Positions 27,801 to 29,706 of a stretch of 64,000 bases of DNA are shown here, one piece after another. Position 1 is the stretch's first letter; each line of letters begins with the position of its first letter. Both the position numbers and the translations under genes were made by a program. Under the pieces are notes generated by a model, which was not told the origin of the DNA, did no database searches, and was given only the letters and a program-made list of their open reading frames with translations. The stretch comes from a virus. The stretch covers positions 1 to 64,000 of the IMG/VR virus record IMGVR_UViG_3300008450_000013; one strand, written 5' to 3'.

Positions 27801-27951
27801 TTTCACAACAGTGTTTCGTCCCATATCTGGTTAGTAGATTCAGCTCTTATCGTGGAACACTGTTGTAGTTTCGTGGAGAGGGTAGCATTATGGCTACTAA
27901 GGTTCTGGCAGGTAGTTTAGTGGCGTGGAACTAAGAATTTAAAGGAGTATT

Positions 27952-28050
27952 ATGGTTAAAAAAGATCGAGTAAAGTTTCAACCTTGCTCAGAGAAACAAA
28001 AGCTAATTTTGATGGATAACACCACGGACGTTATCCTGATAGGCGGTGGT
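27952..28050 (+). CDS. terL: terminase large subunit, exon 1 (33 aa)
   Basis: AAAGGAG RBS; MVKKDRVKFQPCSEKQKLILMDNTTDVILIGGG ends mid-Walker A; below the ORF-track length cutoff. Confidence 0.88.
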
Positions 28051-28284
28051 GAACTTGCGCCTCCGCATTAAAAACAACTTCTTAAACGGTGAAACTCTCT
28101 AGTAGACAATACCGTGCCAAGCCCCTGAAGGGTGCAGTGCGTAACGACCAATCCGAAAGGATGTAGGGCTAAGTAGCTCGAAACAGAAGTCCTCGAAAGA
28201 GTGAAGATATGGTCTGGTCTTTATGGTGACATAAAGCAGCTTAAAAAGCGGAAGTAGATTAACGAACTACTTTGAACACAAACA
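28051..28284 (+). ncRNA. ORF-less group I self-splicing intron (IA2-like) in terL
   Basis: P1 with U28050-G28059 wobble; P3 ACTTCT(28077)/AGAAGT(28185); P7 GACCA(28146)/TGGTC(28210) within AAGATATGGTCT; P7.1, P7.2, P8 and P9-9.2 hairpins; removal restores IGGGAGGGKS. Confidence 0.9.
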
Positions 28285-29706
28285 GCAGGAGGAGGCAAAT
28301 CGAGGATTTGCCTTACAAAGAATTTAGATGGTATTAAAGATGGAAAGTTCCGTTGCGTTATTCTGAGACGTTTTGAGCCAGAGCTTAAAAAACAAGGTGG
28401 CTTGATTGATGAATCCAAGAATATCTACCCACACTTTACAAAAATACCTTACAAAAGTCAACAAAAATTATGGGAATTTCCATCTGGAGCCACAATCGGG
28501 TTTTCAGCAATATCTTGTGACGATGATTTAGGGAGCTGGCAGGGTAGCCAACTAACGAGGGCTTTGATAGACGAGGCGGCTGATAAGTGGACTGAAAAAC
28601 AAGTTTTGTTCTTACAATCTCGTTTGCGTACAGTTGGCTCTGATATTCACCCGCAACTGATTATGTCTTGCAACCCAGACCCTAACAGTTTCTTATTTGA
28701 GTGGGTTAAGTTCTGTCTTGATGAAGACACAGGAGTACCAAAAGAAGGTACTGAGTATCTTATCAGATGGTTCTGTGTAGAAGATAACAAAGCTAAATGG
28801 GCTGATAGTCCAGAAGAGTGCTATGAATTATATGGTGCTCCCAAGAATCTAATTTATGCTCATGGAATGACAGAAGAACAGATGAACGCATTCTCTAAAG
28901 AAGAGAAGATGCGGTTGTTCATGCCTAAGTCATTCAGGTTCATTCCAACTGGTGTTTTTGACAACCCATATCTACTCCCACCAAAGAATACAAGTTACTT
29001 AGCATCTCTCCTTTCCCAACCTTATGTAAATCAGTTAAAATTTTTACATGGAAGTTGGACAGCACGAGAACTTGGGAGTTCTTACTTCGACAGAAAGTGG
29101 GTTCAAATCGTTGACCAACCTCCCGTAAATGCAACAGCTAGGATACGTTCTTGGGACTTCGCTTCAGAAGAAAAGACAAAAACTAACAACCCCGATTGGA
29201 CAGCAGGTGTAAAAATGTCTAGGGATAGGTACGGTATTTACTATATCGAGGATGTTGTCAGAGTGCAGATGCGGATTGACGGTGTTTTAAAAACCGTCAT
29301 TGAGACTGCTAAAGCTGACGGTGTAGGCGAATGTGAAGTCTGCATTCCAGTTGACCCTGCAGCAGCGGGTAAGAGTAGTGCTCACTTCTTTCAGAAGGTA
29401 TTAGCAGAAAATGGCATTCCTTGTAAGAAAGCTCAGTCCTCTGGACACAGTAGCAAGCTCACAAGATTTAAACCGTTTTGTGCATTAGCTGAGAGTGGTA
29501 GTGTTCGTGTGGTTCGAGGGGATTGGAACGATGCATTTTTTGCAGAGCTTGAAGCATTCTCTGGTGACAAAGCAATTGAGAGAACTCAGAAGAACGACCA
29601 AGTTGATGCTTGCTCAGATAGTTTTAACAATTTAGCAAGACAATTACAGCTACCTGTATTCTCAGTACCGTCCCTAACAAAAGCCTCTCCTGTCCCAACA
29701 ATATAG
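28285..29706 (+). CDS. terL: terminase large subunit, exon 2 (spliced product ~506 aa)
   Basis: AGGGKS completes Walker A; ALIDEA Walker B; SCNP; RSWDFA and NDQVDA RNase H nuclease motifs. Confidence 0.93.
   Translation, partial: AGGGKSRICLTKNLDGIKDGKFRCVILRRFEPELKKQGGLIDESKNIYPHFTKIPYKSQQKLWEFPSGATIGFSAISCDDDLGSWQGSQLTRALIDEAADKWTEKQVLFLQSRLRTVGSDIHPQLIMSCNPDPNSFLFEWVKFCLDEDTGVPKEGTEYLIRWFCVEDNKAKWADSPEECYELYGAPKNLIYAHGMTEEQMNAFSKEEKMRLFMPKSFRFIPTGVFDNPYLLPPKNTSYLASLLSQPYVNQLKFLHGSWTARELGSSYFDRKWVQIVDQPPVNATARIRSWDFASEEKTKTNNPDWTAGVKMSRDRYGIYYIEDVVRVQMRIDGVLKTVIETAKADGVGECEVCIPVDPAAAGKSSAHFFQKVLAENGIPCKKAQSSGHSSKLTRFKPFCALAESGSVRVVRGDWNDAFFAELEAFSGDKAIERTQKNDQVDACSDSFNNLARQLQLPVFSVPSLTKASPVPTI

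Follow-up and report, generated by a model that had tools for sequence, protein, structure and literature searches.

At which nucleotide does the group I intron in the terminase gene of an uncultured freshwater phage end? To our knowledge, the G that closes group I introns (omega-G) is near-universal and among the most conserved nucleotides of these ribozymes, with few natural exceptions, and in model introns its change to A strongly impairs exon ligation. Within the window, which is the 64,000-nucleotide stretch of IMG/VR record IMGVR_UViG_3300008450_000013 that was analysed, a sequence-only reading had placed a 234-nt group I intron in terL, the DNA-packaging terminase gene, and had taken A28284 to be its last base. 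We consider it probable that this is a genuine omega-A intron, spliced at U28050|G28051 and A28284|G28285, and we set out below the comparisons on which the boundaries rest.

The host gene and the junction it requires

The insertion lies inside the Walker A motif of terL, on the + strand. Exon 1 (27952–28050, 33 codons) begins with an ATG at 27952, 4 nt downstream of the ribosome-binding site AAAGGAG (27941–27947), and its open reading frame, which ends in TTDVILIGGG, matches the N-termini of intronless homologs; read without splicing, it meets a stop 7 codons into the intron. Exon 2 (28285–29706) runs from AGGGKS to the stop codon, and from G28285 it is in frame with a 434-aa ORF ending at 29706. 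Exon 2 was assigned by Pfam (PF03237/PF17289) and by a homolog search, which returned 3260 terL homologs at E <= 0.001; the closest cultured relatives are Pseudomonas phage PA10-like, at 40% identity.

Joining 28050 to 28285 gives IGGGAGGGKS and restores the host gene, as had been claimed for the ligation GGU-GCA. The same sequence is found in the homologs: GGGA precedes GxGK in 61 of 65 N-terminally complete terL proteins, Ala stands directly before GxGK in 93 of 93, and in an intronless allele (L006, a 94% relative) the DNA of the Walker A motif is uninterrupted. Because the intronless homologs demand Ala before GxGK, only GGU|GCA or GGUG|CA can be the junction. The frameshift that had been predicted for G28285 as omega with the canonical 5' site is borne out by translation, since a mixed register, in which U28050 is joined to C28286, gives a truncated product of 33+13 aa.

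Fold of the intron and covariation among its relatives

The segment 28051–28284 contains no + strand ORF of at least 30 aa except the read-through from exon 1; a homing endonuclease was considered and rejected, the intron being without an ORF. Rfam model RF00028 matches 28041–28236 with 44.9 bits (E 3e-10 in a 551-nt search), which is below the gathering threshold of 50, and a search of the whole window at the gathering cut-off returned no group I match. The minimum free energy (MFE) fold recovers P1 and P4–P9.2; folding energy is uninformative by itself: at –67.2 kcal/mol (z –0.95) it is matched by 37 of 200 shuffles.

Eight distinct introns of uncultured phages occupy the same junction with the same guide sequence, four in the same terL family (L041, L058, L065 and L123) and four in a second family (L042, L043, L051 and L095). 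Each is inserted after the glycine codons and before the Walker A Ala codon; they share with the studied intron P1 and the guide, including a U-U mismatch, as well as P10 and a core with covariation, and their intron identity to it is 42–66%. We counted pairing on eight related introns for P1, P3–P9, P7.1, P7.2, P9.1 and P9.2 as drawn from this sequence, and 84.2% of 456 cells pair, with both sides changed in 36 of 62 pairs, in a count that favours the tested structure since that structure was derived from one of the aligned introns. The pairing of the core is equalled by 0 of 500 shuffles, and slid controls reach 37.5–49.4%. Covariation thus confirms the prediction that 28051–28284 is a group I intron with a complete core, in agreement with the 234-nt ORF-less intron first proposed. 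It lacks P2 and is probably IA2-like: subgroup IA2, the type of phage T4 td, is marked by two extra hairpins, P7.1 and P7.2, which follow P7 and precede the 3' strand of P3. We predict that it splices as a small self-splicing ribozyme.

The 5' end of the fold bears directly on the splice sites. P1 (28043–28066) pairs 28043–28051 with 28058–28066 around the mismatch of U28047 and U28062. The RF00028 alignment pairs U28050 with G28059, the conserved U and G of the model, and this wobble at the 5' splice site is U-G in 8 of 8 related introns, which speaks for the cut after U28050 that had been read from the sequence; Doudna, Cormack and Szostak reportedly established in 1989 that the 5' cut of group I introns follows the U of the wobble. 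G28051-C28058 lengthens P1 into the intron, and at this position intron base 1 and the guide base form A-U in four introns, G-C in three and another combination in one. The internal guide (28054–28058) is also the 5' strand of P10, which pairs over 5 bp with exon 2 bases 28285–28289. Across the eight introns 90% of 40 P10 cells pair, the pair at the first exon base being C-G in four and U-G in four, so that the earlier placing of G28285 as first exon base by P10 is sustained.

In the catalytic core, all cells of P3 (28077–28082 with 28185–28190) are paired (100%) and 4 of its 6 pairs have changed on both sides. P4 (28086–28091 with 28110–28115), P5 (28096–28098 with 28104–28106) and P6 (28116–28117 with 28137–28138, and 28122–28124 with 28130–28132) lie within 28086–28138, and the paired cells amount to 100% in P4, where two pairs have changed on both sides, 87.5% in P5 and 44% in the inner P6. 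P7 (28144–28150, with bulged C28145, and 28210–28215) is paired in 100% of cells, with four pairs changed on both sides, and its G-binding pair G28146-C28214, present as G-C in all eight related introns, is as canonical as had been claimed. P7.1 (28151–28162, GAAA loop) and P7.2 (28166–28179), drawn from the sequence and the MFE fold, are weakly backed in the alignment, where 60% and 50% of their cells pair. P8 (28192–28201) has a GAAA loop and P9 (28219–28236) a GUGA loop, and P9.1 (28239–28249) and P9.2 (28252–28272) follow. A candidate P9.0 (28217–28218 with 28282–28283) fits the register of the introns of phages nACB1, DES1 and phiR1-37, by eye and with one double change, and misfits in L041, L065 and L044; it lends weak support only.

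An A in the omega column

All eight introns at this junction end G|GCA, whereas 28051–28284 ends A|GCA. Comparison with homologous introns, which had been suggested as a check, places A28284 in a column of G: in the MAFFT alignment the omega position, 28284, is G in 7 of 7 relatives, and the eighth, L123, likewise reads G|GCA. Counted to A28284 as omega, the spacing from the P9.2 loop motif is 19 nt, the value found most often among the relatives examined. The register of the intron family is fixed because four relatives with A as base 1, paired with U in the guide, keep Ala only with the canonical boundaries. The closest G-ending relatives are no more than 59–66% identical to the studied intron, a point against omega-A. 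A pocket adapted to A was considered and rejected, the P7 pair being G-C in 8 of 8; this unchanged pair counts against omega-A too, as the pocket shows no adaptation to A.

Is A28284 real? Over 27850–28650 the sequence agrees letter for letter with a Logan contig of run X1 (depth 32.7), and A28284 is no assembler slip; X1 is the probable source sample and hence not independent. In run X3, from another study, there is a variant that differs over 801 nt by 54 substitutions and 2 gaps, an identity of about 93%. It is under purifying selection, as the listed exon-2 changes sit at third codon positions (16 of 17), and the changes within its intron leave the structure intact: G28051>A is accompanied by C28058>U, the P9 loop changes from GNRA to GNRA, and one P9.2 pair changes from A-U to G-U. 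Positions 28284 and 28285 are unchanged among the differences listed, a set that leaves out 14 of the 54 substitutions, which probably lie 3' of 28491 and one of which is A>G, so that A28284 is not strictly proven for X3. Read in this way, the comparison shows an A at the homologous omega column that persists in diverged variants under purifying selection. Furthermore, X3 has A at 28051, so that its invariant alanine is regained only through cuts at U28050| and A28284|.

In a freshwater metatranscriptome (run X20), an RNA contig links the 3' end of the intron to its 5' end through one G only, and it reads A then G at 28284 and 28285, with no difference listed there. It looks like a full-length intron circle. 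Its joint is compatible with both 28051–28284 and 28052–28285; the mixed register is ruled out for this molecule because the joint has one G and not two. No X20 contigs were found on either terL exon. Two further matches, in run X5 and in X20 (record 3), cover only 28084–28123, the conserved P4–P5 region, and belong to other introns.

Alternative readings of the boundaries

In this phage neither the mRNA nor the circle joint, that of X20 included, would differ if both sites were shifted by one base, with cuts after G28051 and G28285 and an omega-G intron of 28052–28285. The mRNA would be identical because 28051 and 28285 are both G. G28285 directly follows A28284, the G pocket is canonical, G28051-C28058 adjoins the wobble pair, and a 4-bp P10 would be left; a terminal G is absent at the homologous column and is obtained only if both sites shift in this way. 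The most similar 3' end, that of L044, points in the same direction: it shares an exact 36-nt run (28247–28282) and then reads AAAG|CAGG with the canonical U at –1, so that its omega-G aligns with G28285, given a 2-nt insertion before that base in the studied intron. We nevertheless regard the shifted sites as unlikely. They would put G-C instead of U-G at the cut, though P1 and guide are exactly identical to those of L042 and L043 and all eight relatives retain the wobble; in X3 they would place Thr at a position that is Ala in 93 of 93 homologs; and the relatives with A as base 1 (L051, L058, L065, L095 and L123) are limited to the canonical register. The earlier claim of omega-A consequently stands in part: the comparative evidence and X3 agree with it, and 28052–28285 and the L044 alignment fit as well.

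In another reading, the 5' cut would follow U28050 and the 3' end would be chosen between two registers, A28284|G28285, which is in frame, and G28285 as omega, which loses one base. A pocket-fitting G does lie one base from omega, and the out-of-frame product would end after 13 codons, so that part of the molecules would yield a 46-aa dead-end peptide and the intron would lower the yield of TerL. We judge this quite improbable: P10 pairs G28285 with C28058, opposing the entry of G28285 into the pocket, and attack of G28285 on the canonical 5' site predicts two G at the joint, where X20 has one. The two registers are the sole concrete route identified to the throttling in the idea, put forward with the omega-A claim, that terminase production might be throttled or timed by a slower second step.

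Finally, that A28284 was misread in sequencing, or arose lately as an inactivating mutation and marks a non-viable genome, as might be supposed from the single full-length genome that carries it, from X1 being probably its own source, and from the absence of any other copy among the sequences searched, is very improbable in view of an independent assembly at the X1 depth with no other letters listed, a complete genome with terminal repeats, the X3 variant that lists no change at 28284 despite its 54 substitutions under purifying selection, and an X20 RNA contig that too reads A then G.

With the patterns used, no further copies of the lineage were found in IMG/VR, JGI metagenome contigs or GTDB genomes. 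One copy-search pattern gave L044 alone and one gave 0 matches; 17 matches of another were without intron context, and 3 matches of a further pattern were all chance. A broad 5' pattern produced 56 chance matches of 61 in the metagenome scan, with no nearby completion of Walker A, and 4 chance matches among 10 new ones in the viral scan.

A model for splicing with a terminal A

We propose that the omega-A intron would splice as follows. The canonical P7 pocket (G28146-C28214) would bind free guanosine, which would attack after U28050, marked by its wobble with G28059. The P1 extension G28051-C28058 would then yield to P10, which would set G28285 beside the 5' exon and A28284 in the omega slot. 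U28050 would attack the A28284-G28285 bond and restore GGGAGGGKS, with A28284 probably the actual leaving nucleotide. The strong 5-bp P10, perhaps together with a 2-bp P9.0, may offset the poor fit of A in a G pocket, although the second step would probably become slower or less accurate.

A stronger version would hold that a terminal A at a canonical G pocket is competent both for exon ligation and for full-length circles, and that A followed by G offers two 3' registers. We think this unlikely. Were it true, the X20 contig would be the circle of an omega-A intron, and the choice between 3' registers one base apart would set the amount of in-frame terminase mRNA. It would also contradict the published proposal (PMC8146996) that omega-A serves to block 3' splice-site hydrolysis and circularisation.

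Comparison with known introns

How does a terminal A compare with what has been described elsewhere? According to PMC6545197 and PMC8146996, the hexacoral mitochondrial ND5-717 group I intron has omega-A, which upholds one precedent named for the terL intron. ND5-717 is strictly vertically inherited, carries a giant gene-containing P8 insert and is probably helped by host factors, whereas the 234-nt phage intron is ORF-less and patchily distributed; unlike ND5-717, it has an RNA contig resembling a full-length circle. The other precedent, the Coxiella burnetii 23S rRNA intron Cbu.L1917 (Raghavan et al. 2007, J Bacteriol 189:6572), is compared here by title only, and by that title it is bacterial, self-splicing and 'lacks the canonical omegaG'. 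That intron interrupts rRNA and not a phage gene, whereas ours interrupts a phage gene that encodes a protein. The terminal base of Cbu.L1917 is reportedly A, as the sequence-only reading had it. Likeness in omega-A to these two introns need not mean kinship.

Known phage group I introns in terL and other core genes, such as those of the T4 td/nrdB type and of Bastillevirinae terL (PMC11878797; review PMC3984707), are small and self-splicing and interrupt conserved motifs, in genes for terminase, polymerase and reductase. In sequence the studied intron resembles introns in the polymerase genes of phages nACB1, DES1 and phiR1-37. The other phage group I introns examined end in G, whereas the studied intron most likely ends in A, and in comparison with them it lacks both P2 and a homing endonuclease gene. 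A literature search by the omega-A wording found no phage omega-A introns, the Greek letter being unreliably searchable. Most likely, the terL intron is a rare exception of a type already published for other introns.

The locus brings its own controls, namely eight sister introns that keep the G and an X3-type base 1 that removes the one-base ambiguity, and a 234-nt ORF-less RNA is easily transcribed. It could thus serve as a clean system for asking how a canonical guanosine pocket tolerates A in the second step, how far P10 and P9.0 replace the recognition of omega, and whether a change of omega alters how much of an essential late phage protein is made, or when. The intron also matters for annotation, since gene callers overlook the first 72 codons of terL, P-loop included, in this phage.

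Results

What is the sequence that divides terL within its Walker A motif? The virus record containing the window is complete (86,810 bp, direct terminal repeats), and the nearest cultured relatives of this terL are the Pseudomonas phage PA10-like terL, at 40% identity. On the + strand, exon 1 runs from ATG 27952, with an upstream AAAGGAG site read from the sequence, to U28050 and encodes 33 residues ending TTDVILIGGG. Exon 2 (G28285 to 29706, +) opens with AGGGKS. Reading through from exon 1 into the intron meets a stop after 7 codons, and the 234 nt between the terL exons hold no ORF. In the mechanical ORF list (window 28402-29706), terL begins only at an internal TTG, so that 72 codons, and with them the entire P-loop, are lost; many database terL homologs of 461-479 aa likewise start within or just past an intron end.

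With the Rfam group I model, 28041-28236 scores 44.9 bits (E 3e-10, 551 nt searched). The gathering score is 50, which accounts for the absence of any match in the whole-window Rfam search. We derived P1, P3-P9, P7.1, P7.2, P9.1 and P9.2 from the window sequence and scored their pairing across eight aligned related introns. In these helices 84.2% of 456 cells are paired, a count biased in favour of the structure, which derives from one of the aligned introns; this level was reached by none of 500 shuffles, and slid controls gave 37.5-49.4%. Both sides have changed in 36 of 62 intron pairs. Pairing is 98-100% in P1, P3, P4 and P7 and 90% of 40 cells in P10 (guide 28054-28058 with exon-2 bases 28285-28289), while P6, P7.1, P7.2 and P8 are weakly supported by the alignment (44-60%). 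The splice-site U-G of P1 and the G-C guanosine-binding pair occur in all eight introns. Helices outside the pseudoknot also appear in the MFE fold, the energy of which is unremarkable (z -0.95). On this comparative reading of sequence the terL intron (28051-28284) is a real group I intron, and what a sequence-only reading had described is borne out: an ORF-less intron of 234 nt with a core, its 5' splice site placed by the P1 U-G pair, P10 and a canonical P7 G-binding pair.

Among the 120 best terL homologs, Ala directly precedes GxGK[STA] in 93 of the 93 with the motif in the first 130 residues; the 65 that are N-terminally complete comprise 61 with GGGA, 2 with GGSA and 2 resembling read-through from intron ends. 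In L006, an intronless terL that is 94% identical, the expected junction DNA is uninterrupted. In the terL mRNA, ...GGU must consequently be followed by GCA..., the ligation already claimed to restore Walker A. With G at both 28051 and 28285, two cut pairs yield this same mRNA: one between 28050 and 28051 and between 28284 and 28285, the other between 28051 and 28052 and between 28285 and 28286. A cut after U28050 with G28285 as omega, the last intron nucleotide, gives a dead-end product of 33+13 residues, so the earlier statement that this combination breaks the terL frame holds.

Protein-guided and pattern scans located eight different introns that interrupt terL just ahead of the Ala codon and carry the same guide sequence. 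Four are in the window's terL family (L041, L058, L065 and L123; L041 and L016 are on one contig) and four in a second (L042, L043, L051 and L095); L056, L124, L125, L127, L128 and L130 were left out as duplicates. All eight end G/GCA where the window reads A/GCA, and in a MAFFT alignment of seven sisters with the window the column of A28284 is G in 7 of 7. The proposed check of homologous introns thus upholds the observation. Intron base 1 is A, paired with guide U, in five sisters (L051, L058, L065, L095 and L123), in which only a cut after U and a terminal G keep Ala, fixing the register of the family. Base 1 and its guide base covary (A-U in four, G-C in three, one misaligned), and in P10 this guide base has the first base of exon 2 as its partner (C-G in four, U-G in four). 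P1 and guide sequence of L042 and L043 are exactly those of the window.

Discussion

We propose that this is probably an omega-A intron with A28284 as its terminal nucleotide. P1, unchanged from G-ending relatives, would set the 5' cut after U28050 (a wobble pair, here U28050-G28059, reportedly sets the 5' splice site; Doudna et al. 1989). An in-frame product would then need ligation to G28285, presented by P10, which would make A28284 the leaving nucleotide although the pocket is one that fits G. Against this, we find no pocket change that would favour A.

A shift of both cuts by one base, to G28051 and G28285 with G28285 as omega-G, is unlikely. In its favour, against L044, the closest 3' end, the window appears with two extra bases and G28285 aligns with omega-G. 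By eye, the distance from the P9.2 loop motif to omega is 18-19 nt in most relatives read and 23 in L007; in the window it is 19 to A28284 and 20 to G28285. The unchanged P1 and the register fixed by the five sisters speak against the shift, as does X3, a run from another study (probably DNA) with one 3387-nt contig spanning 27850-28650, the stretch over which run contigs were compared. It differs by 54 substitutions and 2 gaps; 16 of 17 listed exon-2 changes fall at third codon positions and 7 of 12 listed exon-1 changes are synonymous by reading of codons, so terL is under purifying selection. Within the intron the listing shows just eight differences. Two of them, 28051 G>A and 28058 C>U, together leave the P1 extension intact; the others are a 1-nt deletion at 28243, a replacement of A-U by G-U at 28252, and changes at 28052, 28128, 28227 (GNRA loop kept) and 28259. 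Since X3 has A at 28051, the shifted cuts would place Thr at the position that is Ala in 93 of 93 homologs. No difference is listed at 28284 or 28285; 14 substitutions are not listed, the tally holding one unlisted A>G, and as listed rows run in place order to 28491 we infer from row order and density that these lie in 28492-28650.

Mixed use of two 3' registers is quite improbable. In X20, a freshwater metatranscriptome, a 158-nt contig (depth 3.8) reads 28191-28285, four letters, then 28055-28114: the 3' end of the intron runs straight into its 5' end, only one G stands at the joint, and the P1 loop is longer by one T. The contig has three differences in common with X3 and covers neither exon. 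It has the appearance of a stable, naturally occurring full-length intron circle, a pathway described previously (PMC3679873). Having just one G at the joint rules out, for this molecule, that G28285 attacked the canonical 5' site. The joint fits A28284-G28051, the shifted G28285-A28052, or a variant with a canonical ...G/G end and base 1 A, which would break the base 1-guide pair.

A defect or artefact is very improbable: X1, a freshwater metagenome that is probably the source and hence no independent support, has one 2511-nt contig (depth 32.7) identical over 27850-28650, so A28284 is not an assembler slip.

The A in a G column stands as an observation, and the omega-A reading of it is favoured but unproven, making the intron another example of a known, rare kind. 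Coxiella Cbu.L1917 is reportedly one such case. PMC6545197 and PMC8146996 document hexacoral ND5-717 as another, as had been stated, the latter proposing that its omega-A serves to block 3' hydrolysis and circle formation. Phage terL genes with group I introns are described in PMC11878797 and PMC3984707. The literature searched for omega-A wording, a blunt kind of search, yielded no phage omega-A intron. An effect on terminase timing or dose is conjecture.

The 3' half of the window intron recurs in introns that lie in polymerase genes of phages nACB1, DES1 and phiR1-37 and end in G. L044:2686-2979, in another terL on an IMG/VR contig, shares a 36-nt exact run with window 28247-28282, after which it reads G/CAGG, and has the canonical U before its 5' site. 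It differs from the window in 5' half, guide and insertion point, lying after the first base of the Ser codon in GAGSGKS; this mosaic suggests module exchange between introns.

Finally, we note other insertions in related genes. In L007:1256-1497, L021:1250-1496 and L025:1250-1496, a related intron that ends in G lies one codon further upstream, where it separates the second Gly codon from the third. As the L007 terL has 97% identity to that of the window, the P-loop site that is occupied varies among close relatives. L007 and L012 (97% and 91% relatives) give tblastn matches about 270-280 nt longer than their coding length, and a further group I intron-like stretch, absent from the window, lies about 400 nt into exon 2 (L007:1897-2039, L012:1911-2054). 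In terL homologs of 652-810 aa (P0057, P0080, P0083, P0086, P0090, P0093, P0114 and P0118), most with intein-type Pfam domains PF05204 and PF14528, the extra sequence begins directly after GGGAGGGK where the N-terminus is present; both inteins and introns thus target the terL P-loop. Annotation splits the T7-like 'DNA maturase B' gene of Klebsiella phage vB_KpnP_ZH4 (L002:589-810), and likewise of Henu2_3 and P284, into two CDS on either side of a group I intron; an ORF follows this intron, and the U-U mismatch in the P1 of the window intron is found in its P1 too.
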